Shown here one piece after another: positions 6,846-27,848 of a stretch of 35,205 nt of DNA (within the stretch, counting starts at the first letter, position 1; each line of letters starts with the position of its first letter). Made by a program: the position numbers and the translations under genes. This DNA is from an uncultured Clostridium sp. (lineage in GTDB: Bacteria; Bacillota; Clostridia; TANB77; CAG-465): contig CAZTVT010000003.1 of assembly GCA_964617175.1 (NCBI GenBank), forward strand, positions 1 through 35,205, in the 5' to 3' direction. Below the pieces are notes generated by a model. The model did not search any database. It saw nothing but the letters and a program-made list of their open reading frames with translations, and had not been told where the DNA came from.

Positions 6846-9302
6846 ATGGACATTAATGATGAAAACTTTTTATCGTCACAAACAATTGTGCCTGTTAAAA
6901 TAGAAGAGGAGATGAAAAGGTCATATATAGATTATGCGATGAGTGTTATCGCATCACGTGCACTTCCAGATGTAAGAGATGGATTAAAGCCAGTTCATAG
7001 AAGAATACTTTATTCTATGAGTGAACTTGCACTTTGGCCAGAAAAACCTTTTAGAAAATCAGCAGGAATTGTAGGTGAAGTTATGGGAAACTATCATCCA
7101 CATGGTGATGCTGCAATTTATGATGCTTTAGTTCGTTTATCACAAGATTTCTCACTAAGATATCCAGTTGTAAATGGGCATGGTAATTTTGGATCAGTTG
7201 ATAACGACCCTCCAGCTGCTATGAGGTATACAGAGGCAAAATTACAAAAAATAGCACTTGAAATGTTAACAGATATAGATAAAGATACAGTTGATTTTGT
7301 GCCAAACTATGATGATAGATTAAAAGAACCATCTGTTTTACCAGCTGCGTTTCCATATTTATTAGTAAATGGCTCTTATGGTATAGCTGTTGGAATGGCT
7401 TGTAACATTCCGCCACACAATTTAACTGAAGTAATAGATGGTGTTTGTGCACAGATAGATAATCCTGAAATTACAAATGAAGAATTAATGCAATATATTA
7501 AGGGACCAGATTTTCCAACAGGAGCTACAATCGTTGGAAAAGAAGGTATAAAGAGTGCATATACTACTGGTAGAGGAAAGGTATGTGTAAGATCTAAGGC
7601 TGAAATTGAAGAAGATAGTAGAGGAAGATATAAAATTGTTGTAACTGAAATCCCTTATCAAGTTAACAAAGCCCAAATGATTAAAGATATAGCAAAACAA
7701 GTTCAAGACAAGGTAATAGAAGGGATATCTGATTTAAGAGATGAATCTGATAGAGAAGGAATTAGAATAGTATTCGAACTTAAAAGAGACGCAAATCCAA
7801 ATGTTGTTCTTAATTTATTGTATAAACATTCACAACTTCAAACTACACAAAGTATGTTAATGCTTGCATTAGTTGATAATCAGCCAAGAGTATTAAAATT
7901 AAATGAAATATTGCACTATTATATAAAGCACAGAGAAGAGATTGTTGTACGTAGAACAAAATTTGAACTTGCAAAAGCAGAAGCAAGGCTTCATATTTTA
8001 GAAGGTTTAAGAATAGCTATTGATCATATAGATGAAATTATAAAAATTATAAGAGCTTCTTATGATGACGCTGCACAGAGGCTTATGAAAAACTTTGGAC
8101 TTGATGAAATACAAGCTACAGCTATTCTTGAAATGAAACTTAAAACTTTATCTGGTTTACAGAGAGAAAAAATAGAAAATGAGTATAACGAGTTACTTGA
8201 ATTGGTTGCAAAATATAAAGCTATTCTTTCAGATGAACATTTAGTAACTAATATTGTAAAAGAGGAGTTACTAGCTGTAAAAGAAAAATTTGGTGATGAA
8301 AGAAGAACTGAAATAGTACATGGCGAAGGTGATATAGACATTGAAAGTTTAATTAAAGAAGAAACTAATATTGTAACGCTAACGCATTTTGGATATATTA
8401 AAAGAGTAGCTGCTGATGTATATAGAAGTCAGAAACGAGGTGGAAAGGGACTTACTGCAATGAGTACTCGTGAAGATGATTTTGTTGAACACTTATTTGT
8501 TACTTCTACGCATGATTATATTATGTTCTTTACAACAACAGGAAGAGTATTTAGACTCAAAGCATATGAAATTCCTGAAGCTGGAAGAACAGCAAAAGGA
8601 ATGGCTATTGTTAATTTACTTCAATTAGGTCAAGGAGAAAAAATTGCCGCTGTAATGTCCGTACATGATTATAATGATGAATTGTATGTTCTTATGGCTA
8701 CAAAAAATGGACTTATAAAGAAAACAAAACTTTCTGAATATGCTAATATTCGTAAAACTGGAATACAAGGAATCACTTTAAAAGATGATGATGAATTAAT
8801 TGATGTAAGACTTACTGATGGAAATACAAGTATAATAATGGTTACAAAGCAAGGTATGTCAATTAGATTTAAAGAGGAGGAAGTACGACCAGTTGGTAGA
8901 ACTTCTATGGGAGTTAAAGGTATAAATCTTGGAAAAGATGATAAAGTTGTTGGAATGGAACCTATAACTGCTAATGAAGACTATATATTAGCAATAACAG
9001 AAAATGGTTTTGGAAAGAGGACAGAGATTGAAGAATATAGAGAACAATCAAGAGCTGGAAAAGGAATATTAACATATAAAACAACTGCTAAAACTGGGCA
9101 TATTATAGGAGTAAAAATTGTAAATGATCAAGATGATGTTATGCTTATAACAGATACTGGTGTTGTAATACGTATAAATGTAAAAGATATAAGTGTACTT
9201 GGAAGAAATACACAAGGTGTAACTCTTATGAGAACATCTGATGGATGTAAAGTTGTTAATATGGCAAAAATTTTAAAAGAAGATGAAACTGATAATATAT
9301 AA
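6846..9302 (+). CDS. gyrA: DNA gyrase subunit A
   Basis: Canonical N-terminus ([31 protein letters not shown]) and catalytic region [11 protein letters not shown] GyrA-box QKRGGKG in the C-terminal domain argues for GyrA rather than ParC. Start moved to ATG 6846 (GGAGG at 6834-6838). TTGCTT-17-TATAAT promoter upstream. Confidence 0.9.
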
Positions 9303-19932: not shown

Positions 19933-20346
19933 AAACGAAATTGTAAAATAAATTGAATTGATTTTATGCTTTAGACTATTATTTAGTTTTTTAATGCTTG
20001 TTATAGCAACAACTATAACGTCATCCTCTCATTCAAAATTTAATTGATGTGCAAAAGCACACCTCATAAGTTTTGAATTCATGCGTCTAGCAATATAACT
20101 ATTCTATTTCAAACAGAAGTAAAAAAATAGAGGAAGCAATCGCCTAAAATACATAACTATACAGAAATTTTATATTGAGCTGATAACTACCGATAAATTT
20201 TAGATTTCCATACTATTGTTACAAAAACAATAATTAAATGCATATAATTATTTCGATAAAGCAAAATAATAAAGATAATCGAAAAATACGTTGTACCGTA
20301 AAAAATCTCAAAAAACAGCAAAATATTACGATATACCGTAAAAATG

Positions 20347-20375
20347 TTGACAAAATCATAAAAAAAGAGTAGAAT
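20347..20375 (+). promoter_or_regulatory. Sigma-A-type promoter of the AAA+ ATPase gene
   Basis: TTGACA, 17 nt, TAGAAT. Two copies of TACCGTAAAAA lie at 20294-20304 and 20334-20344; the second ends 2 nt before the -35 box. Confidence 0.5.
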
Positions 20376-20407
20376 TAATATAGATGTTAAGTAAGGAGGA
20401 AATCTTT

Positions 20408-21604
20408 ATGATAAAAAGAGAAAAATATTTAAAGAATATTAGAGGGTTTTATGATCAAGATTTAATAAAGGTAATTACAGGAATAAGAAGATCTGGAAAG
20501 TCAACATTATTAAAACAAATAATAGATGAATTAAAAGAGAGTGGAGTAAATAAAGAAAAAATAATATATATAAATTTTGAAGATATTGAAATGTCTTTCA
20601 TAAAAAATGATATGGATTTAAATGCTTATATAAAGAAACAAATAAAAGATGATGAAAAATATTATTTGTTTTTTGATGAGATTCAAAATGTAATCGATTG
20701 GGAAAGAGCAGTAAATTCATTTAAGGCAACAAAAAATGTTTCTATATTTATAACTGGTTCAAATAGTAATTTATTATCAGGAGAATTAGCAACTTTATTA
20801 GCAGGTAGATATGTATCATTTAAAATACAACCATTTTCTTTCAAAGAAGTTTGCGAGTTAAAGGGGATAGAAGATAAAGGCGAAATAGAAGAAGCATTTG
20901 AGGATTATATAAAATGGGGAGGAATGCCACAAAGATTTTACTTTAATGATGAACAAGAGACAAAAAATTATTTAATGGATTTATATGATTCAATTGTGGT
21001 AAAAGATATTATAAGAAGATATAAAGTAAAAGATATTGAATTGTTAAATAAAATTTTAGAATATTTAATGTCTACTCCAGCACAGCAATTTTCTGCAATG
21101 AATATTGTCAATTATTTAAAAAATGAAAATAGAAATTGTTCTAATGAAACATTGTATAATTACTTATCTTATATAACAAATTCTTTTATAATGAGTAAAG
21201 CGAAAAGGTATGATATAAAAGGAAAAAGAGTATTAAGTACAAACGATAAATATTATTTAACAGATTTAGGTCTTGGACAGGTAAAAAGTTCAATTAAAAC
21301 TAAAGGAAAAGGAAGTGTACTTGAAAATATAGTATATAATGAATTAATAAATAGAGGATATGAAGTTTTAGTCGGAAAATCTGATTCTTCAGAGATAGAT
21401 TTTATTGCTTCATATTTTGATGAAAAAATATATATTCAAGTAGCATATATTTTAGCAGATGATGACGTTATTGAAAGAGAGTTTGGTGCTTTTAAAGAGA
21501 TTCAAGATAACTATCCTAAATACGTTTTAACAATGGATAAATTAGATTTTTCGCAAAATGGAATAATTCATAAAAATGTAATAGATTGGTTATTAGAAAA
21601 GTAG
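20408..21604 (+). CDS. AAA+ ATPase of the AAA_14/DUF4143 (COG1373-like) type
   Basis: Walker A GIRRSGKST, Walker B YLFFDEIQ, and a C-terminal restriction-endonuclease-like segment LENIVYNELINRGYEVLVGKSDSSEIDFIA...IYIQVAY. Start moved to ATG 20408 (AAGGAGGA at 20393-20400). Confidence 0.7.
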   Translation: MIKREKYLKNIRGFYDQDLIKVITGIRRSGKSTLLKQIIDELKESGVNKEKIIYINFEDIEMSFIKNDMDLNAYIKKQIKDDEKYYLFFDEIQNVIDWERAVNSFKATKNVSIFITGSNSNLLSGELATLLAGRYVSFKIQPFSFKEVCELKGIEDKGEIEEAFEDYIKWGGMPQRFYFNDEQETKNYLMDLYDSIVVKDIIRRYKVKDIELLNKILEYLMSTPAQQFSAMNIVNYLKNENRNCSNETLYNYLSYITNSFIMSKAKRYDIKGKRVLSTNDKYYLTDLGLGQVKSSIKTKGKGSVLENIVYNELINRGYEVLVGKSDSSEIDFIASYFDEKIYIQVAYILADDDVIEREFGAFKEIQDNYPKYVLTMDKLDFSQNGIIHKNVIDWLLEK

Positions 21605-21634
21605 AAAAGATGTAACATATAAACTAGTTAGGTG

Positions 21635-22125
21635 ATGCCATATTTTATAGCAGATACTCATTTTAATTATGAAAATATAATAAAATACTGTGATAGATGT
21701 TAATTGTAAGTGAAAAATGGTCCAACTTATAATTAAATTTTTAGATGACATAATAATTCGAATAAACCTCTTAACCAATAAAAATAAAAATTTCTTATAA
21801 GTGTCAATACTTGATTTATCAATACAGTTTAGTATTGATACGTTAAGAAATTTTTATATAATTAATCGTTAGGTTATGTAACTTAGTGGTCCAAAATTCA
21901 ATTATAATAATGGACCATTTTGGACCATTTTTCATTCGGAAAATACAGTTGAACTTGGAAACTTAATATTAACACATGAACCAATTGAGATATTAGATGA
22001 TGGTAAAATTAATGTATTTGGACATATACATAACAAGCCATTAAATGAAAGATTTAATAAAGAAAATCATATATGTATTTCATGTGATGTTGTTTGACTA
22101 TACATCACAAAAAAATTAATATTGA
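21635..22125 (+). pseudogene. Destroyed metallophosphoesterase (YfcE-like) gene
   Basis: N-terminal fragment MPYFIADTHFNYENIIKYCDRC* at 21635-21703. C-terminal fragment VELGNLILTHEPIEILDDGKINVFGHIHNKPLNERFNKENHICISCDVV* ends at 22097, with a further frame break after it. The middle of the gene is missing or replaced by the inverted-repeat element. Confidence 0.65.
21711..21934. mobile_element. MITE-like non-autonomous element (224 bp) with perfect 15-bp terminal inverted repeats
   Basis: tgaaaaatggtccaa at 21711-21725 is the exact reverse complement of ttggaccatttttca at 21920-21934. A central long imperfect palindrome spans 21788-21853 (aaatttctta..tcaatact / agtattga..taagaaattt). There are extra ggaccatttt copies near the right end and no coding capacity. 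Confidence 0.55.
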
Positions 22126-22228
22126 GTAAAATATGAGTAAAATTTTAGTTGGCAAAGGATAAAAAACTGAAAGCATTGTTAAAATCCTGTATAATGGTTT
22201 TGCAACAAACTATTAGGAGGATATAGCA

Positions 22229-22315
22229 ATGCTTTCATTGACAAGTTTAATAGAAAGTGTAATAAATTTCAAGATTTTTGAACAAAAAATTAACCCAAAA
22301 ATTAAAGACATTTAG
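22229..22315 (+). CDS. Small ORF (28 aa), possibly an orphan gene start or a peptide
   Basis: AGGAGGA RBS 8 nt upstream of the ATG and a TATAAT box at 22190-22195. Reads MLSLTSLIESVINFKIFEQKINPKIKDI. No homologue recognised. Confidence 0.25.
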   Translation: MLSLTSLIESVINFKIFEQKINPKIKDI

Positions 22316-22364
22316 AATATATAAAGAGCAGGGAAATAGACAAAATAGAGTTACATTATATTGT

Positions 22365-22735
22365 CTATACATAAATTAATTCAATTAATACAGATTCTTC
22401 AGCACAATGCTTATAATTATTCATAATAATAAGTCTTACCCATTTTAATGGGCCAGTATTTTTCAACTCTTCATCAATAAGCTTTTTCTTTAGCATTTGT
22501 TTCATAAGTATTTCAAATCTTTCTTTAGCTCGTTTATCGGTTTTTGCGAGATGTTTTCTTAAAGTACCATTCATAAGCATTTAGTATATTCATTCTTTTT
22601 ATTATTTTTTAAATATTCTAATCTTAAATGACCGTACTTTCCAATTTGATAATCTTTTCCATATTTATCTTTTGCTAAATATAGATTAGGTAAATAATAA
22701 TATCCAACTTTATTATATGTAATTTTATTATTCAT
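22365..22735 (-). pseudogene. TnpV-like (transposon-encoded protein TnpV family) gene with one frameshift
   Basis: N-terminal piece MNNKITYNKVGYYYLPNLYLAKDKYGKDYQIGKYGHLRLEYLKNNKKNEYTK (ATG 22735). It is joined out of frame at about 22580-22582 to MLMNGTLRKHLAKTDKRAKERFEILMKQM...LKWVRLIIMNNYKHCAEESVLIELIYV. The IGKYG, W-V and EE..L.E.IY landmarks match my memory of TnpV of Tn4451-type elements. One A missing from an A-run would restore the frame. Confidence 0.6.
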
Positions 22736-22957
22736 TTCTAAAAAACCACTATAAATTAATTTTCACTACAAATTTTACTAAATAATTTATAACTTCACTC
22801 GACAATCTAATATAATAAAATTTTGGAAGAAGTCGATAAGAGCAACTTTGTCCTTATTAAATTTCTCCCAACCCGACATTTTTTATATATGTTTTCCACG
22901 AAACAAAAATGTAACTTTTGTGTAATCAAAAAGATACAATAAATTTGTTATGTAGGC

Positions 22958-22985
22958 TTGCGTTTTTTTTTTTTTAGTATATACT
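22958..22985 (+). promoter_or_regulatory. Candidate promoter whose spacer is mostly a T13 homopolymer
   Basis: TTGCGT (22958-22963), 16-nt spacer, TATACT (22980-22985). The T13 run occupies 22963-22975. The -10 box lies inside the palindrome AGTATATACT. Confidence 0.35.
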
Positions 22986-23093
22986 GTACGTGGTATAGAT
23001 ACAATAGAGAAATGTGATAGCCATTTTTATAGGACTAGGAATTGTATTTCCTTAGTATATACTAATTGTATGTGAAAAAGAGAGGTTGAAATT

Positions 23094-24152
23094 ATGGGAA
23101 GAATAAGAAATTTTTTTAATAGGATTTTTGGGAAAAATCAAAAAACATTAGGAGAGGCAAAACCAAGGGCACAAGGTGTTCCTTTAGATATTGCACCTCC
23201 ACAAAAGCCTGAGGTAAAAGAAGAAAGCTTTGATAATTTTAAAGAGGACTTACAAAAAAATACTATTCAGAAAAATGAAATGAGTTTTGATGAAACATTA
23301 GACTATTTTATACAACAACAAAAATTAGATCCAATATGTAAAAATCCTAGAGGTAGAGAAAAATTAGGAAAGATGCTAGAGCAAGTTCTTACAAAAGAAA
23401 AAGTAAAAGCAGAAGATGGAGTATATAATAAAAATTCGGTAGAATATGCTCTTGAAAGAAGTTTCGGTAAATCACCTGAATCTGAACGTGAGAGTATAAC
23501 ATTTGAGGATAGAGAATATTACTATTTTGAATCTGATAGAGAAAATAGTAAGATAGCACCAGGTTGTCAAAAAACAACAATAAGTGTAAATGAATATGAT
23601 GAATTAAGTGAAACAACTGAAGAAAGAAGTTCATATTCATATAATACTAGACCTGATGAAAAAAATAAACCAATTCAAGTTGTTTTTTCAAAAAGCGAAC
23701 ATCACTACCAAAAAACTGGAATTGAAGATAGAAAAATTGAACAAAGTTGTAGATTTGATAATATGCAAATGAGAGGAGAATATTATCAGGCAAAACCTAC
23801 TTTTGATTATGCTCTTTTAGACTATCATAATGAAAGTACAAAAAATTATCCTAATTATAAAGCTACCTTAGCACAAAGACATGATGGTATTCTAGCAGAA
23901 GTTCATGTTGTAGGTCAGGAAGGAAGAAATAAACATGTGTATCTGAATGCGGAACATGGGGTTGATGATTTAGTAGTTACTGATGAAAGTATAGACGCAA
24001 GAAATTATCTTGAAATGACAGATGAACAAAAAGAAGAGTTTAAGAGTAGGGCTACTAATGCTATATCAAGGTCAAAATACAAGGAGGCTCTAGCAGATCA
24101 GACACCAGGTGTTGATATGGAAGATATAGAAAAAAACAAGAGTAGAGATTAA
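23094..24152 (+). CDS. Hypothetical protein (352 aa), gene 1 of an uncharacterised three-gene operon
   Basis: Clean ORF with a GAGAGG RBS. Hydrophilic, no TM or signal peptide, no catalytic motif recognised. Shares two ordered sequence blocks with gene 2. Confidence 0.6.
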   Translation: MGRIRNFFNRIFGKNQKTLGEAKPRAQGVPLDIAPPQKPEVKEESFDNFKEDLQKNTIQKNEMSFDETLDYFIQQQKLDPICKNPRGREKLGKMLEQVLTKEKVKAEDGVYNKNSVEYALERSFGKSPESERESITFEDREYYYFESDRENSKIAPGCQKTTISVNEYDELSETTEERSSYSYNTRPDEKNKPIQVVFSKSEHHYQKTGIEDRKIEQSCRFDNMQMRGEYYQAKPTFDYALLDYHNESTKNYPNYKATLAQRHDGILAEVHVVGQEGRNKHVYLNAEHGVDDLVVTDESIDARNYLEMTDEQKEEFKSRATNAISRSKYKEALADQTPGVDMEDIEKNKSRD

Positions 24153-24169
24153 TAATATAAGGTGATTTT

Positions 24170-25099
24170 ATGAATTCAAATGATGTAATAGAGTTTATGG
24201 AGCAAAATTGTGGACTAAATCAAGGTTATGCAAAAAATCCAGCTGCATTAAAAAGAATGGCTATTGTAATAGATGAATTGAAAAAAGTTGGGATAACTAA
24301 AATTACAAAAAAAAATAAAGAACAAGTTCAGTATGTTGCGAATAAGTATGTAAGTAATGGTAACTTTTCTTATTCTAAAGGAGATAATGGCGGAATGATA
24401 GACTCCCATTATTGCACAGAACATTATGTTGGACATATTAATGAAGATGGTTCTTATGTGGAAACTAATACAAGAATTAATAAAATACTTCTTGACTCTC
24501 AACCTACACGTCAAGAAGAAAGTATAAGGACCTATAATAAACATGGCTTAGAAATGAAAAGAATAGAAAAGATTAAGGAATCTTTTAAAAATTCATCTGT
24601 TGAAGAAAAATATGAGATATCTAGAGATGAAGAAATGGTAACTTCTACTATAGTTGGTAGTAAGAAAATAGATGGCAAAGAATGTGGTGATATCACTCAA
24701 AAGGTTTTGTTATTAGATGAAGATCTCGCACCACAGACTATCATGGATTATGATGTATCATATATGAAAGGTTACTATGACGAAATGGAAAGACAAAGAG
24801 AAGATTTTAGTGAGGGAAGAGTACTTTCTGGAACACTTCTTGCTGTTGATGGTATAAAAGTAGAACGTCCTAATGAGTTTTATTTTATAAAAAGCAATTT
24901 TGACTATAATTGTATGGTTTCACCTGAGTTTAGAGAATCAGCTAAAGAAAAAGGACTATATAGAGAACCTACTACAAAAGTAAATAAAGGGAAAATGAAA
25001 GCTATATATCAAAGTGTATCACATAAAATAAATGAGGTTGCCGATAATTTTAATAAAAAAGTTAAAGGTGAACAAACAAAAACAAAAGATAGTATGTAG
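24170..25099 (+). CDS. Hypothetical protein (309 aa), gene 2, apparent divergent paralogue of gene 1
   Basis: AAGGTGA RBS, 17 nt after the stop of gene 1. Blocks NDVIEFMEQNCGLNQGYAKNPAALKRM and GTLLAVDGIKVERPNEFYFIKSN align with DETLDYFIQQQKLDPICKNPRGREKL and GILAEVHVVGQEGRNKHVYLNAE of gene 1. Confidence 0.6.
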   Translation: MNSNDVIEFMEQNCGLNQGYAKNPAALKRMAIVIDELKKVGITKITKKNKEQVQYVANKYVSNGNFSYSKGDNGGMIDSHYCTEHYVGHINEDGSYVETNTRINKILLDSQPTRQEESIRTYNKHGLEMKRIEKIKESFKNSSVEEKYEISRDEEMVTSTIVGSKKIDGKECGDITQKVLLLDEDLAPQTIMDYDVSYMKGYYDEMERQREDFSEGRVLSGTLLAVDGIKVERPNEFYFIKSNFDYNCMVSPEFRESAKEKGLYREPTTKVNKGKMKAIYQSVSHKINEVADNFNKKVKGEQTKTKDSM

Positions 25100-25108
25100 G
25101 AGGGAAAA

Positions 25109-25558
25109 ATGGAAATAACATATGAAAAGGCACTTGCAGAAGCTTTTGCAGTAATAATGAAATTAGAATTTAGTGATATACAAAAAATACCAGATGAGTT
25201 ATTAAATACTTTAAAAAATAATATGGATCAAGAGTATTATACTACATTAAATATAGATGAAGAATATATAGATAATAACCTGTCAGAAGATGCAAAAGGA
25301 ATATTAGGTCTTGTATATAGAGATTATCTTACAGATGAATCTGAAAGAAAAGAGCTTGTGGAAAGTGAAAATAAATCTGAAGAAGAATATCAAGAAGTTT
25401 TAAGAGATATGTTCCAATCTGATTTAGTATTTAAAAATAACGATACAAATGAAGAAAAAAAAGAAGTAAAGCAAGAAGTTAGAATGATAAAACAGGAAGA
25501 ATTAAAATGGTATGAAAAGTTAAAAATAAAAATAAAAAAGGCTTTAGGTATAAAATAA
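25109..25558 (+). CDS. Hypothetical acidic protein (149 aa), gene 3 of the operon
   Basis: AGGAGGG RBS, 9 nt after the stop of gene 2. Helical N-terminal part (IPDELLNTLKNNMDQEYY...AKGILGLVYRDYL), E/K-rich tail, basic amphipathic C-terminus. Confidence 0.55.
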   Translation: MEITYEKALAEAFAVIMKLEFSDIQKIPDELLNTLKNNMDQEYYTTLNIDEEYIDNNLSEDAKGILGLVYRDYLTDESERKELVESENKSEEEYQEVLRDMFQSDLVFKNNDTNEEKKEVKQEVRMIKQEELKWYEKLKIKIKKALGIK

Positions 25559-25572
25559 AAATTTAAAAAATT

Positions 25573-25602
25573 AGAAGTAAGGTATAATCTTACTTCTTTT
25601 TT
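25573..25602 (+). terminator. Rho-independent terminator closing the three-gene operon
   Basis: agaagtaag / cttacttct 9-bp stem followed by a T-run. Confidence 0.75.
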
Positions 25603-25733
25603 CATGCATATAACAAAAATGTTACAAGGTTACAAAAAAATGTCAAAAAAATTAAAAATATTTCAATAAAATGTAGAAATATTTTTTTGTACATGATATA
25701 ATGTTTATAAATTTGGATTTTGAGGTGAAATAT

Positions 25734-26435
25734 ATGAATGATAAGAGAATTTTAATAGTTGACGATGAAAAACCAATAGTAGATATATTAAAATTTAATT
25801 TAGAAAAAGAAGGATTTACTACAACAGTGGCATATGATGGAGAAGAAGCTATAAATATGGCATTATCTGTAAAACCCGATCTTATACTCCTTGACCTTAT
25901 GTTACCAAAAGTAGACGGATTTAATGTATGTAAAGAAATAAGAAAACATCTTACTTGTCCTATTATAATGCTTACTGCAAAAGAAGAAGTTGTTGATAAA
26001 ATAATTGGTCTAGAACTTGGCGCCGATGATTATATGACAAAACCTTTTAGTATTAGAGAAGTTATTGCAAGAATAAAGGCTAATTTAAGAAAACATGTTT
26101 TACCAGAAGATGAAGATAATAAAAAATTGTCTAAGAATAAGATAAAAATAAAAGATATGGTAATAGATCCTGAAAGATATATAGCAATAATTGGAGATAA
26201 AAAAATTGATCTTACTATAAAAGAGTTTGAACTCCTTAAAATGCTTTCATCTGCACCAAATCAAGTGTTTACTAGAGAGCAAATATTAAGAGGTGTATGG
26301 GGATATGATTTTTATGGAGATGCAAGAACTGTTGATGTTACAATAAGACGTTTAAGAGAAAAAATCGAGAAAAGTTCTGCGGATCCACAATATGTTCAGA
26401 CAAAAAGAGGAATGGGGTATTACGTTTCTAATTAA
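25734..26435 (+). CDS. OmpR-family response regulator, WalR/YycF-like
   Basis: KRILIVDDEKPIVDILKFNLEKEG...DLILLDLMLPKVDG...IIMLTAKEEVVDKIIGLELGADDYMTKPFSIREVIARIKANLRK is very close to my memory of B. subtilis WalR. Winged-helix C-terminus ends in RGMGY. Start moved to ATG 25734 (GAGGTGA RBS); a TGATATAAT extended -10 lies upstream. Confidence 0.85.
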   Translation: MNDKRILIVDDEKPIVDILKFNLEKEGFTTTVAYDGEEAINMALSVKPDLILLDLMLPKVDGFNVCKEIRKHLTCPIIMLTAKEEVVDKIIGLELGADDYMTKPFSIREVIARIKANLRKHVLPEDEDNKKLSKNKIKIKDMVIDPERYIAIIGDKKIDLTIKEFELLKMLSSAPNQVFTREQILRGVWGYDFYGDARTVDVTIRRLREKIEKSSADPQYVQTKRGMGYYVSN

Positions 26436-26456: not shown

Positions 26457-27848
26457 ATGAAAAGTTCTATAAAAGTAAATATTAAGATTATAAATATATT
26501 GATGGTAGTTATAGTATATATAACTACTATCCTTTTATGCGGAAAAGTTATAGATACAAATAATATCTTTGCGATTTCTAATATAATAATATTATTAATT
26601 TTTATTTTAATTTCATTTATTCTAAATAGTATATTATCTAAAATGATAACGTTGCCTTTAAAAAAAATAGAAAAGAATATGAGACTTGTAGCAAATGGTA
26701 AGGTAAGTGAGCCTAAACATTTAGAAGAATATACTAAACTTACTGAAATAAGAGATTTTACAGATGCATATATGGATATGTTCCAAATAATAAAGAAAAA
26801 TAGCTTTGATCTTACAGGTCAACAAAGTAAGACTGAAATAATACTGGAACATATGGCAGATGGTGTTATAGCTTTTAATATTTCAAGACAGGTTATACAT
26901 ATAAATAAATCAGCATTTAGGTTGCTTGGTTTAAGTTCTACTGATGATACTTTTGAAAAAATAGTTAAAAGGCTTAAAATTAATCTTGATTTTGATAAAG
27001 TAATGTATTTACCTAATTACAAAACTATTGAGGCAAAAATTACTGTCGCTGGAAATTCTTTAAACATTGTATTTGTACCATTTTTTAGCGATAATTTAAC
27101 TCCAATGGGCGTTATAATGATGGTAAGAAATATAACAGAGAATGTTAAATTAGATAATCTAAGAAAAGAATTTGTTTCGAATGTATCACATGAACTAAAA
27201 ACACCTCTTACGTCAATAAAAGGGTATTCAGAAACTATGATGAATGGCGATCTTACATATGCAGAAATTCAGAAATTTTCTAAGGTTATAAATCAAGAGG
27301 CTAATCGAATGGGAAGGCTTGTTTCAGATCTTTTGCAATTGTCAAGGTTTGACTATAAAAAAGTTAGTTGGAAAAAGATGATGTTTTCTCTTGATGAGCT
27401 TGCAGAAAATGTTTGTGAAAAAATGAAAATACAAGCAGATCAAAAAGGTCATAAACTAGAATGTATAATAAGTAATACGCCACCTCAAGTATATGCCGAT
27501 AGAGATGCTATTGAGCGTGTAATAATAAATATAGTAAGTAATAGTATAAAATATACACCAGATGGAGGTATAATTACTGTATATGTAGGTTCTGTAAATT
27601 CTAATGCATATTTTAAAGTGGTAGATAATGGTATAGGGATACCCGCTAAAGATTTAGATAGAATATTTGAAAGATTTTATAGAGTAGATAAAGCAAGAAG
27701 TAGAAAAGCCGGAGGAACTGGGCTTGGACTTTCCATAGTAAAAGAAATGATAGAAGGAAATAACGGTACTATTGACATAAGGAGTGAAGTTAACAAAGGA
27801 ACAGAAGTAATTGTGACATTACCAACTAAAATTGATACCAAAAAATAA
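26457..27848 (+). CDS. Sensor histidine kinase (two TM, PAS-like, HisKA, HATPase_c), WalK/PhoR-like
   Basis: H-box FVSNVSHELKTPLTSIKGY, N-box IVSNSIKYTP, G1 VVDNGIGIP, G2 GGTGLGLSIVKE. Two N-terminal hydrophobic helices. Confidence 0.85.
   Translation: MKSSIKVNIKIINILMVVIVYITTILLCGKVIDTNNIFAISNIIILLIFILISFILNSILSKMITLPLKKIEKNMRLVANGKVSEPKHLEEYTKLTEIRDFTDAYMDMFQIIKKNSFDLTGQQSKTEIILEHMADGVIAFNISRQVIHINKSAFRLLGLSSTDDTFEKIVKRLKINLDFDKVMYLPNYKTIEAKITVAGNSLNIVFVPFFSDNLTPMGVIMMVRNITENVKLDNLRKEFVSNVSHELKTPLTSIKGYSETMMNGDLTYAEIQKFSKVINQEANRMGRLVSDLLQLSRFDYKKVSWKKMMFSLDELAENVCEKMKIQADQKGHKLECIISNTPPQVYADRDAIERVIINIVSNSIKYTPDGGIITVYVGSVNSNAYFKVVDNGIGIPAKDLDRIFERFYRVDKARSRKAGGTGLGLSIVKEMIEGNNGTIDIRSEVNKGTEVIVTLPTKIDTKK

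Follow-up and report, generated by a model that had tools for sequence, protein, structure and literature searches.

WalRK is an essential cell-wall regulator of Firmicutes. The wal operons that have been studied contain lineage-specific accessory genes, including those for WalH, WalI and WalJ in Bacillus and WalA in C. difficile, and the WalR consensus quoted there for B. subtilis is the direct repeat TGTWAH-N5-TGTWAH (PMC9210968). Cargo of defence islands and hotspots is a second kind of described system with which the present locus can be compared, and the PDC entries of PADLOC are experimentally unproven candidates (bioRxiv 10.1101/2024.01.29.577857). Here, we describe a cassette of three genes (g1, g2 and g3) in a window of 35,205 nucleotides, the whole stretch of DNA that was analyzed, from an uncultured Clostridium sp. 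The cassette lay between murI and a WalRK-like two-component operon in every locus found, and the hosts are related species, probably of one genus, of uncultured low-GC gut Clostridia.

The cassette resembles the Wal accessory genes in that it is lineage-specific, adjoins walR and walK, and has WalR-consensus repeats nearby. In contrast to those genes, it is transcribed separately and has a terminator of its own, it is missing from some strains (L109, L110 and L118), and its proteins contain no transmembrane segment, lipoprotein signal or exported domain. No sequence similarity of g1, g2 or g3 to any Wal accessory family was found in Pfam or NCBIfam. A classification as Wal-operon accessory proteins was rejected because of the separate terminator, the lack of a hydrophobic segment and the strains without the cassette. 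The cassette also resembles defence-island or hotspot cargo (e.g., the neighbouring candidate PDC-S01); it occupies a fixed gap between core genes, is strain-variable, comes in alternative modules, has moved between species, and shares the gap with mobile-element debris and with PDC-S01 itself. It differs from such cargo in that its proteins have neither a match among the 5027 PADLOC models nor an effector domain, and in that it was found at one site in one species group.

Table 1. Features of the cassette and its surroundings in the window.
Feature	Position	Strand	Description
Accessory DNA between murI and the cassette promoter	19936-22878		ATPase, MITE-like element, ORF fragment, TnpV
DUF4143/AAA_14 ATPase	20384-21604	+	Pfam and PADLOC matches
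MITE-like element	21711-21934		Perfect 15-nt inverted ends, 21711-21725 and 21920-21934
ORF fragment, 55 aa	21930-22097		Beside the MITE-like element
Frameshifted TnpV gene	22365-22735	-	Both halves match PF14198
WalR-type direct repeat TGTAAC-N5-TGTAAT	22910-22926	+	Perfect consensus match
Putative sigma-A promoter	22958-22985	+	TTGCGT, T-rich 16-nt spacer, TATACT within TAGTATATACT
Second copy of the ...TTAGTATATACT block	23042-23063	+	Direct repeat D4
g1	23094-24152	+	ORF, 352 aa
g2 (class I)	24170-25099	+	ORF, 309 aa
g3	25109-25558	+	ORF, 149 aa
Intrinsic terminator	25573-25603	+	11-bp stem, 3-nt loop, T-run
WalR-type half-site array upstream of walR	25599-25626	-	Perfect box 25610-25626; overlapping boxes with one mismatch
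walR-like response regulator	25734-26435	+	NCBIfam YycF, 331 bits against a cutoff of 340
walK-like histidine kinase	26457-27848	+	NCBIfam WalK, E = 1e-103

The original prediction, made from the sequence of the window, described three ORFs separated by 17 nt (g1-g2) and 9 nt (g2-g3), each with its own Shine-Dalgarno site and all closed by a clean terminator, and each of these features was recovered (Table 1). The Shine-Dalgarno sites were GAGAGG, AAGGTGA and GGAGGG, the last of which overlaps the stop codon of g2. The terminator is of the Rho-independent type, with a hairpin at 25573-25597 followed by the T-run TTTTTT; the hairpin energy was -12.2 kcal/mol (z = -4.8), and none of 200 shuffled sequences folded as well. 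The same hairpin was retained upstream of walR in the operon-less strain L109. From this arrangement, g1, g2 and g3 appear to be co-transcribed from their own predicted promoter to their own terminator. In the upstream alignment, most haplotypes retained the promoter block TAGTATATACT before their first gene, both where this was g1 and where it was a class II g2. The TTAGTATATACT repeat copy was located inside a leader insertion of approximately 65 nt, which was present in the window row alone of the upstream alignment.

As had been predicted, the three proteins contained no recognizable domain; searches of Pfam, NCBIfam, PHROGs, PADLOC and PDB sequence profiles gave nothing for g1, g2 or g3, and the comparison with the 5027 models of PADLOC-DB 2.0 gave no match at E ≤ 1. 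No enzymatic, nucleic-acid-binding or pore-forming domain was recognizable in them, and none of the ATPase, nuclease, protease, TIR, SIR2 or transmembrane effector domains was present. The expected absence of transmembrane and signal motifs was also found, with a maximum Kyte-Doolittle 19-mer below 1, and there was no lipobox in any of the three proteins.

The g1 protein begins with an amphipathic helix (residues 2-14) and a disordered linker (residues ~15-57), continues with three helices (residues 65-124) and a beta-rich core, and ends in C-terminal helices followed by an acidic tail that is conserved. Its AlphaFold2 model was confident (pLDDT 82, pTM 0.76), and Foldseek revealed no match at E ≤ 0.001 in PDB or BFVD, where the best E-values were 0.09 and 0.05, respectively. 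The model suggests that g1 is a soluble beta-rich protein of unmatched fold. A helix was placed at residues 3-12, and pLDDT was low at residues 8-57. The N-terminal 12-mer showed a hydrophobic moment of 0.69, the highest of any window in g1, and a net charge of +3 to +4. The leader RIRNFFNRIFG was near-invariant across the family and was confined to this locus in 1.8 Mb of retrieved DNA. MinD, FtsA, SepF and Noc carry terminal amphipathic membrane-targeting helices, and the g1 sequence and model share the moment, charge and flexible linker of such helices; in particular, the g1 helix is short, terminal, Phe-rich and positively charged, with the flexible linker after it, and its hydrophobic moment (0.60-0.69) was at least that of the reference peptides computed alongside. 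This likeness lies in the physical properties of the helix only, and in its globular part g1 has no relationship to MinD, FtsA, SepF or Noc.

In g2, the first ~60 and last ~70 residues were conserved across two classes (I and II), and the middle was variable. The class I protein of the window showed 26-30% sequence identity to the class II proteins (333 and 342 aa) found at the same position. Only 4 cluster representatives of g2 were present among 1.84 billion proteins, and its AlphaFold2 model was poor (pLDDT 49). The description of g3 as an acidic protein agreed with its pI of 4.6; its tail, predicted to be basic and amphipathic, was indeed basic but not helically amphipathic (hydrophobic moment of 0.19).

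The original prediction also regarded g1 and g2 as a tandem paralogue pair, and this proposal failed BLASTP, hhalign and permutation tests. The BLASTP comparison gave E = 0.16 in a register unlike the proposed blocks, and hhalign of the family profiles gave a probability of 0.15-0.5%. When hhalign was applied to the N-terminal sub-domains alone, the register of the first proposed block was regained (g1 residues 63-125 with g2 residues 1-62), and the score of 12.7 was reached by 12 of 120 column-permuted controls. The two proteins were alike solely in the order of their secondary-structure elements, with an offset of approximately 62 residues and with g2 represented by its pLDDT 49 model. Since there was no significant sequence or profile similarity, homology between g1 and g2 was not supported; the true paralogues are the two g2 classes, which stand in tandem only in L105.

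To describe the distribution of the cassette, related loci were compared; the haplotype sample was small and was mostly ascertained via g1 or g3 homologues. Strains L109, L110 and L118 belong to the species of the window, with flanks 97-98% identical to it, and carry none of the three genes. Strain L112 of the same species carries a class II g2 gene instead, and strain L111 has the window haplotype. In another species, L001 and L011 have flanks that are 99% identical, with class II g2 and g3 in L001 and g1, class I g2 and g3 in L011. In L017, L018 and L022, the closest relatives in the sample, walR comes after murI across a gap of 120-300 bp, and no homologue of g1, g2 or g3 is present. These comparisons agree with the predicted accessory rather than core nature of the genes and give good support to the conclusion that the three genes are an accessory cassette, variable from strain to strain, in a recombination hotspot that is bordered by murI and the walRK-like operon. 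Such strain-level presence and absence at a conserved site that collects mobile and defence-type genes is what is seen for cargo of the defence-island type. The cassette family was confined to a few closely related species, and its host is uncultured.

The three genes did not behave as one unit. Whereas g1 was found without g2 and g3 in L015, L097 and L100, g2 and g3 were found without g1 in L001, L006, L101, L107 and L108. Co-occurrence of all three genes, which had been proposed as a check, thus did not hold; g3 followed g2 in every locus whose sequence extends past g2. The cassette is composed of two separable modules, g1 alone and the closely spaced g2-g3 pair. Both modules stand in tandem in L105, where a g3 remnant lies between them and g1 is frameshifted. 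In L015, a second g1-type protein of 362 aa shares its first ~75 residues with g1 and has a different body, and a truncated 5' copy lies beside its gene. Intact reading frames were present in many independent metagenomes. No relatives of g1 or g2 were found among IMG/VR viral contigs, and tblastn gave no match for g3 in phage and plasmid records; a phage- or plasmid-borne family was rejected on these results. Since the cassette family was seen at one chromosomal site only, in one group of related species, it shows no association with known defence systems beyond one candidate neighbour.

That neighbour is the upstream DUF4143 AAA+ ATPase, which had been predicted and which matched PADLOC candidate PDC-S01 with E = 4e-157. 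The predicted TnpV remnant was likewise present, frameshifted and with both halves matching the family profile. For the gene said to be wrecked by a MITE-like element, the element itself was found with perfect inverted ends, and what lay beside it was a 55-aa ORF fragment. The entire 19936-22878 segment was absent from L011, in which g1 comes 133 bp after murI. Elsewhere, the cargo of the murI-walR gap included diverse DUF4143 ATPases in both orientations, TnpV and, in L015, a Bro-N island; in more distant relatives, murD-like genes fill the same gap.

Comparison of the window with L011 or L001 gave dS values of 0.19 for g1, 0.81 for g2 and 0.04-0.125 for g3, with 0.76-1.07 for the flanks. The g3 genes of the window and L001 were 97% identical in amino acids and 98% in nucleotides, with a dS of 0.04. 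Nucleotide identity between the window and L011 fell to 0.57-0.81 precisely over g2, and the identity profile broke sharply at both borders of this gene. These values indicate that g1 and g3 were exchanged between species recently and that g2 is an old divergent cassette between them. It is g2 that is the exchangeable part, with two deep classes plus divergent alleles. The omega values were 0.2-0.44 between species and 0.08-0.32 within haplotypes; g1, g2 and g3 are all under purifying selection and are therefore functional, and the recent spread of g1 and g3 across species suggests a selectable benefit. Within haplotypes, g2 showed ordinary purifying selection and no arms-race signal.

The downstream genes were housekeeping genes as expected, with walR-like and walK-like genes and tatD. 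The Shine-Dalgarno site and family alignment favour 25734 as the probable start of walR, which has a promoter-like site separate from that of the cassette, and no extracellular sensor domain is apparent in this WalK. The WalR-type box at 22910-22926 precedes the start codon of g1 by 168 nt and the -35 element by ~31 nt. With the B. subtilis consensus, two perfect boxes were found in the 35 kb, against 1.14 expected, and both flank the operon; nine loci together contained 20 perfect boxes, of which 17 were located in the two intergenic regions. The half-sites are AT-rich and quasi-palindromic. At the same upstream place, L006, L097, L015 and L112 have perfect boxes, which are missing there in one species (L001, L011 and L105); the upstream box travels with the cassette. 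The cassette thus has, as a sequence match, the direct repeat in the promoter region that marks a WalR regulon member. The array upstream of walR was kept in every cassette-carrying locus, in the operon-less L109 and L118, and in the relatives L017 and L018, and the relative L022 had no WalR-type boxes upstream of walR. These conserved putative boxes hint at autoregulation of walR. To our knowledge, such autoregulation has been reported to be absent in other Firmicutes.

The function of the cassette can be inferred with low confidence only, and our best guess is a membrane-associated conflict or defence-type system. We tentatively favour, as a possibility, a system acting at the membrane against phages or mobile elements, in which g2 is the specificity subunit, g3 the constant partner and g1 the membrane-tethered component. 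The invariant amphipathic helix and flexible linker would tether g1 to the cytoplasmic face of the membrane, the conserved ends of g2 would provide its contacts with g3 and leave its variable middle domain exposed as a specificity surface, and the WalR-type boxes would make expression responsive to the condition of the envelope. A bolder form of this proposal, which we consider rather doubtful, is an as yet undescribed type of immune or conflict system that acts at the membrane and consists throughout of proteins with new folds, with a hot-swappable g2 between g1 and g3 and with WalR-type boxes that would wire expression to envelope damage or remodelling. In a still more exotic variant, g1 and g2 would be the two subunits of a bacterial pseudo-symmetric heterodimer resembling CapZ.

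However, a role in the cell envelope would account equally well for the WalR-type boxes and for a location between murI and walRK. The cassette could be a lineage-specific cell-envelope or division module of the WalR regulon, whose peripheral-membrane proteins would act from the cytoplasmic side to modulate wall synthesis, division or WalK signalling. Its constant place beside a YycF-like regulator and a WalK-like kinase, the murD-like genes in the same gap of more distant relatives, the perfect boxes before walR in all cassette loci and, in four species, in the cassette promoter as well, the resemblance of the g1 helix to those of SepF, Noc and MinD, the precedent of lineage-specific accessory genes in studied wal operons (PMC9210968) and the purifying selection on all three genes are consistent with this role. 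We nevertheless consider it doubtful, as the whole cassette is missing from some conspecific strains and from the closest relatives in the sample, and as it has its own terminator outside the wal transcript and no transmembrane segment, lipobox or signal peptide, unlike known Wal accessory proteins; deep allelic classes, module swapping and recent transfer between species would also be unusual for division or wall-synthesis factors. A humbler explanation is that the three are orphan genes restricted to this lineage, whose role is minor or conditionally neutral and which persist and shuffle only because the murI-walR gap tolerates insertions. The very narrow distribution, with the 4 g2 representatives in the protein collection, the dispensability of the genes in natural strains, the decayed neighbours, and the frameshifted or remnant copies (g1 and the g3 remnant in L105, the 5' fragment in L015) fit this explanation, which is nonetheless unlikely given omega well below 1 for all three genes within and between species, intact frames in many independent metagenomes, the confidently predicted g1 fold, the invariant N-terminal leader and conserved promoter, and the recent cross-species spread of g1 and g3.

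The original prediction combined an old tandem duplication of g1 and g2 with a single toxin-immunity or anti-defence unit, in which g3 would be the neutralizer. In its favour, g1 (offset by ~62 residues) and g2 have three helices, beta hairpins and C-terminal helices in the same order, helix 1 is followed in each family by a loop with an invariant KNP, and the restricted hhalign regains the proposed register. Several features of the locus also resemble polymorphic toxins: the conserved promoter and N-terminal ~75 residues common to g1 and the 362-aa protein with a different body, the truncated 5' copy in L015, and the conserved ends of g2 around a variable middle, with recombination breakpoints at its borders. 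On the other side are the failed alignment and permutation tests described above, the low-confidence g2 model, and the occurrence of g1 without g2 and g3 and vice versa. Furthermore, g3 was 97% identical where g2 was 26% identical; a cognate immunity gene would be expected to do the reverse of what g3 does, which is to remain constant when the class of g2 changes. As no toxin domain, secretion signal, or secretion apparatus or partner was found and g3 did not co-vary with g2, a polymorphic toxin-immunity cassette was not supported, and we judge the combined proposal very unlikely. We consider it extremely improbable that g2, alone or with g1, is a scaffold like capping protein or like PUR/Whirly proteins, which would bind a filament end or single-stranded nucleic acid through its beta-sheet face and C-terminal helix. 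CapZ chains have three helices, three strands, a helix, four strands, a long helix and a C-terminal helix, and the predicted order of elements in g2 fits this order. The adjacent g1 and g2, like CapZ alpha and beta, share no sequence similarity and have the same order of secondary-structure elements. When the g2 model was compared with the PDB using Foldseek, CapZ alpha and beta chains made up most of the top 25 matches (E = 2e-3 to 0.2), and Pur-alpha and a ThermoDBP-related protein were also among the matches. However, these matches are unreliable because the pLDDT of the model is so low, with TM-scores of about 0.13; the g1 model (pLDDT 82) did not have CapZ among its top matches, and Pfam and PDB profiles gave no sequence-level support.

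Whether the cassette serves in conflict or in the envelope, g1 provides a confidently predicted fold that is unmatched in PDB or BFVD. If the envelope role is true, WalRK would have in the cassette a cytoplasmic accessory that strains can do without, and this in a lineage in which WalK seemingly has no outside sensor. If the tentatively favoured conflict system is true, the cassette would represent a new defence or competition family without known domains, from abundant uncultured human-gut Clostridia whose immune repertoire is scarcely charted, and it would be a natural case of a specificity cassette swapped between conserved partner genes.

The genes g1, g2 and g3 were found to form a tightly packed operon in the gap between murI and walR, with intergenic gaps of 17 nt and 9 nt, a Shine-Dalgarno site before each gene and a closing terminator hairpin, the energy of which was equalled by 0 of 200 shuffled sequences. 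This layout agreed with the original prediction, as did the upstream setting, in which domain matches and inverted ends identified a DUF4143/AAA_14 ATPase, a MITE-like element and a TnpV gene broken in two by a frameshift. The window ATPase matched the profile of the putative PADLOC candidate PDC-S01 with an E value of 4e-157. DUF4143/AAA_14 genes in this gap differed between strains of one species, were present in either orientation and were often split; the copy in strain L109 gave no tblastn match from the window DUF4143 protein.

Coordinates of the features in the window and in homologous loci (L-numbers)
Feature	Locus	Coordinates	Strand	Description
g1	window	23094-24152	+	352 aa; Shine-Dalgarno GAGAGG
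g2	window	24170-25099	+	309 aa, class I; Shine-Dalgarno AAGGTGA
g3	window	25109-25558	+	149 aa; Shine-Dalgarno GGAGGG, overlapping g2 stop
Terminator hairpin	window	25573-25597		after g3, then T-run; -12.2 kcal/mol, z = -4.8
DUF4143/AAA_14 ATPase	window	20384-21604
DUF4143/AAA_14 ATPase	L109	11201-12514
DUF4143/AAA_14 ATPase	L112	11643-12530
DUF4143/AAA_14 ATPase	L113	11641-12915
MITE-like element	window	21711-21934		~224 bp; perfect 15-nt terminal inverted repeats TGAAAAATGGTCCAA / TTGGACCATTTTTCA
Break in megablast homology to L111 (same haplotype)	window	21698-21938		region of MITE-like element
Conserved cluster	window	12490-16298		just upstream of dnaX
VirD4-like gene	window	13947-14306, 14401-15447		split
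WalK residues 1-61	window	26457-26640		two hydrophobic segments
Perfect WalR-type box	window	22910-22926		upstream of promoter
Perfect WalR-type box	window	25610-25626		upstream of walR
WalR half-site array	window	25599-25626	-	upstream of walR
WalR half-site array	L017	11443-11470		upstream of walR
WalR half-site array	L018	4331-4358		upstream of walR
Inverted repeat of TGTAAC half-sites	L097	5855-5885 / 7258-7288		31 nt, 87-90% complementary, around lone g1
Equivalent inverted pair	window	22876-22891 / 25607-25622		only 16 nt
Leader	window	22964-23063		second TTAGTATATACT block
Compound locus	L105	1583-5447		frameshifted g1, class I g2, 38-aa g3 remnant, class II g2, intact g3
g1-type genes and island	L015	2265-7000
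murI	L111	10774-11537		called as two ORFs (124 + 117 aa); frameshift or assembly error
recR to cassette	L107	2643-2912		no murI

Homologous loci were found as metagenomic contigs through g3 and g1 homologues. Their neighbours were the same as in the window, namely dnaX, ybaB, recR and murI to the left and, to the right, the genes of a YycF/WalR-like response regulator (331 bits, with the cutoff at 340) and of a WalK-like histidine kinase, and tatD. The content of the murI-walR gap varied between contigs.

Content of the murI-walR gap in homologous loci
Loci	Gap content
L011-14	g1, g2, g3
L001-5, L101-102, L108	333-aa protein, then g3
L006-10	342-aa protein, then g3
L107	332-aa protein, then g3; murI missing
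L097-99	g1 alone
L100	short g1 without N-terminal leader
L015	two g1-type genes around Bro-N island; without g2, g3
L105	frameshifted g1, g2, g3 remnant, 332-aa protein, g3

The 332- to 342-aa proteins (class II) proved to be g2 homologues with only 26-30% identity to class I, as the type in the window is called here (E = 5e-23 to 8e-30). Conservation between the classes covered ~60 residues at the N-terminal end and ~70 at the C-terminal end, and the middle was variable. In this sample, g3 came after g2 of either class wherever the sequence continued, class I g2 always had g1 before it, and g1 was able to occur alone. The operon therefore consists of two modules, g1 and g2 plus g3, and the three genes did not behave as one unit as had been proposed, since g1 was found alone and class II g2 with g3 was found without g1. 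The compound locus of L105 looks like a possible substrate for the simpler haplotypes through recombination between its repeated g3 or g2 ends. In L015, the second g1-type gene (362 aa) had nothing in common with g1 beyond the promoter and the N-terminal ~75 aa; a truncated third 5' copy with a stop codon was also present, and the inverted island encoded a Bro-N protein and three proteins without Pfam domains.

Comparison of L001 with L011, which have 99% identical flanks and are therefore the same species, revealed class II g2 and g3 in the former and g1, class I g2 and g3 in the latter, the replaced segment running from the promoter to ~105 bp before the g2 end. Because the first sample had been ascertained through g1 and g3, the window's own species was re-sampled through its exact RecR protein. 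Three strains with flanks 97-98% identical to the window (L109, L110 and L118) were without g1, g2 and g3 and had another DUF4143 gene, in split form; from 25549 onwards they were again homologous to the window. Another strain, L111, had the window haplotype with 100% amino-acid identity in all three proteins, and L112 carried a class II g2. The empty strains and the other module in L112 bear out the prediction that the operon is accessory rather than core. In the nearest relatives detected among reference genomes (L017, L018 and L022), murI was followed by walR across a gap of 120-300 bp with no homologue of g1, g2 or g3 between them. The view that the site is always occupied was rejected as an ascertainment bias, since the RecR-based sampling turned up empty strains.

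Divergence of the window from L011 or L001
Genes	dS	Nucleotide identity	omega
Flanking genes	0.76-1.07	74-88%	0.03-0.26
g1	0.19	91%	0.44
g2	0.81	75%	0.27
g3	0.04-0.125	96-98%	0.2-0.28

The 100-nt identity profile showed sharp breaks at both g2 borders. Together with the low dS of g1 and g3, these breaks show a recent exchange of g1 and g3 between species, with g2 as an old, divergent cassette between them. The g3 protein was 97% identical to that of a species in which murI was 69% identical. A core status for g3, with conservation on a par with that of RecR, was rejected, as its high identity results from recent transfer (dS 0.04-0.125 vs 0.8-1.1 in the flanks). Within haplotypes, class II g2 showed omega values of 0.32 and 0.08 in the two species. 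The genes are therefore functional and subject to purifying selection, and hypermutation of g2 under positive selection was unsupported.

The original prediction of no recognisable domain was upheld: searches of g1, g2 and g3 against Pfam, NCBIfam, PHROGs and PADLOC gave sub-threshold noise only, and sequence-profile searches of the PDB with the three family alignments gave nothing. The match of g3 to DUF5752 (E = 1e-3, the same across members) was below the cutoff and uninformative. As also predicted, none of the three proteins contained a hydrophobic stretch fit for a transmembrane segment or signal peptide. An exhaustive HMMER search of 1.84 billion representatives with the g2 profile returned 4 cluster representatives, all from one small family; the g2 family is thus tiny. 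No relatives were found in viral contigs with g1 and g2 or in phage and plasmid records with g3, and no RNA family was found by Rfam in 19800-25900. The GTDB genome scan gave no match with g3; with RecR, its best match showed 87% identity, in uncultured Clostridia MAGs.

The g1 N-terminus, MGRIRNFFNRIFGK, was near-invariant across the g1 family and confined to this locus within 1.8 Mb of fetched DNA. No other part of the protein had a helical hydrophobic moment as high as that of this 12-mer (0.69), the net charge of which was +3 to +4. It was followed by ~45 residues of low model confidence and a confidently predicted core (pLDDT of the g1 model 82). The terminal helices that target MinD, FtsA, SepF and Noc to the membrane show this pattern. 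Foldseek searches of the g1 model against the PDB and BFVD gave no match at E <= 0.001; the best matches (E = 0.09 and 0.05) were above this threshold and comprised assorted beta-barrels and GFP sensors. The g3 protein was acidic with a basic tail, as described before, but the tail was not amphipathic as a helix (hydrophobic moment 0.19), and a membrane-targeting helix was unsupported there.

Most haplotypes had, ahead of their first gene and regardless of which one it was, a conserved block of CTTGCGT, a T-run and TAGTaTATACT, a putative sigma-A promoter. In the window leader, the second TTAGTATATACT block lay 78 nt after the first, in a window-specific insertion of ~65 nt, and AGTATATACT formed a perfect palindrome. 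The Bacillus subtilis WalR consensus TGTWAH-N5-TGTWAH (PMC9210968) was matched perfectly at only 2 sites of the 35 kb window vs 1.14 expected for its whole length, a number not in excess; across nine loci, 17 of the 20 perfect boxes lay in the cassette-upstream and walR-upstream intergenic regions, and it is their location rather than their number that stands out. Four species had the cassette-upstream box, as did L112, in which it moves together with the cassette; it was missing in L001, L011 and L105. Every cassette-carrying locus had half-site arrays 70-120 nt upstream of walR, and so did L109 and L118, which lack the operon, and the relatives L017 and L018, an arrangement suggestive of walRK autoregulation in the lineage; the relative L022 had no WalR-type box. 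In L097, the two arrays form the inverted repeat around g1, which may reflect shared regulation or insertion history. The TGTAAC arrays might be the inverted ends of a mobile cassette, but this idea was not adopted, because the right-hand array also exists in relatives and strains without the cassette.

Because few residues lie between two closely spaced hydrophobic segments read from its sequence, the WalK-like kinase appears to have no extracellular sensor domain. The conserved cluster near dnaX contained three small ORFs and a 249-aa protein, all of them without Pfam domains, together with a VirD4-like coupling protein of the CD1115 family; the VirD4-like gene was also split in same-species strains and was intact (502 aa) in related species.

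There is good support for the view that the cassette has two modules, is functional, dispensable and exchanged horizontally, lies in a hotspot adjoining walRK, and has g2 as its exchangeable part. As for its role, the earlier proposal of a tandem paralogue pair with a toxin-immunity function is among the less likely readings. BLASTP aligned g1 with g2 at an E value of 0.16 and not in the register of the proposed blocks, and hhalign of the family alignments gave a probability of 0.15-0.5%. When hhalign was restricted to the N-terminal sub-domains, the register of the first proposed block was recovered (g1 63-125 vs g2 1-62), but its score of 12.7 was reached by 12 of 120 column-permuted controls, and the claim of paralogy failed on significance. 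The two models were generally similar in architecture, with three helices (65-124 in g1, 3-60 in g2) followed by hairpins, long beta hairpins in g1, and C-terminal helices in g1 and helices in g2; a KNP in the loop after helix 1 was invariant within each family. This predicted likeness is a lead, not a test, because the g2 model is poor (pLDDT 49). A CapZ/PUR-like scaffold is likewise less likely: the top PDB matches of the g2 model were chains of CapZ, both alpha and beta (E = 2e-3 to 0.2), with Pur-alpha also present, and the possible resemblance was kept as a lead only because the TM-scores were ~0.13 and the model is poor. Near-neutral orphan genes are also a less likely explanation, the omega values indicating purifying selection.

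Our tentative preference is for a membrane-acting conflict system directed against phages or mobile elements, a reading that is possible rather than probable, because of the strain-level presence and absence, the deep allelic classes, the inter-species spread and the company at the site (the ATPase with its match to the candidate PDC-S01, TnpV and the Bro-N island). Counting against it are the absence of known defence domains in the three proteins, of viral or plasmid relatives and of a sign of positive selection. The main rival, somewhat less likely, is a WalR-controlled envelope or division accessory, which agrees with the position, the WalR-type boxes and the amphipathic helix of g1 but not with the dispensability and module swapping of the cassette. 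The protein families are new, one of them with a predicted fold without a match; as variable hotspot cargo that undergoes cassette exchange, the unit is of a familiar kind.
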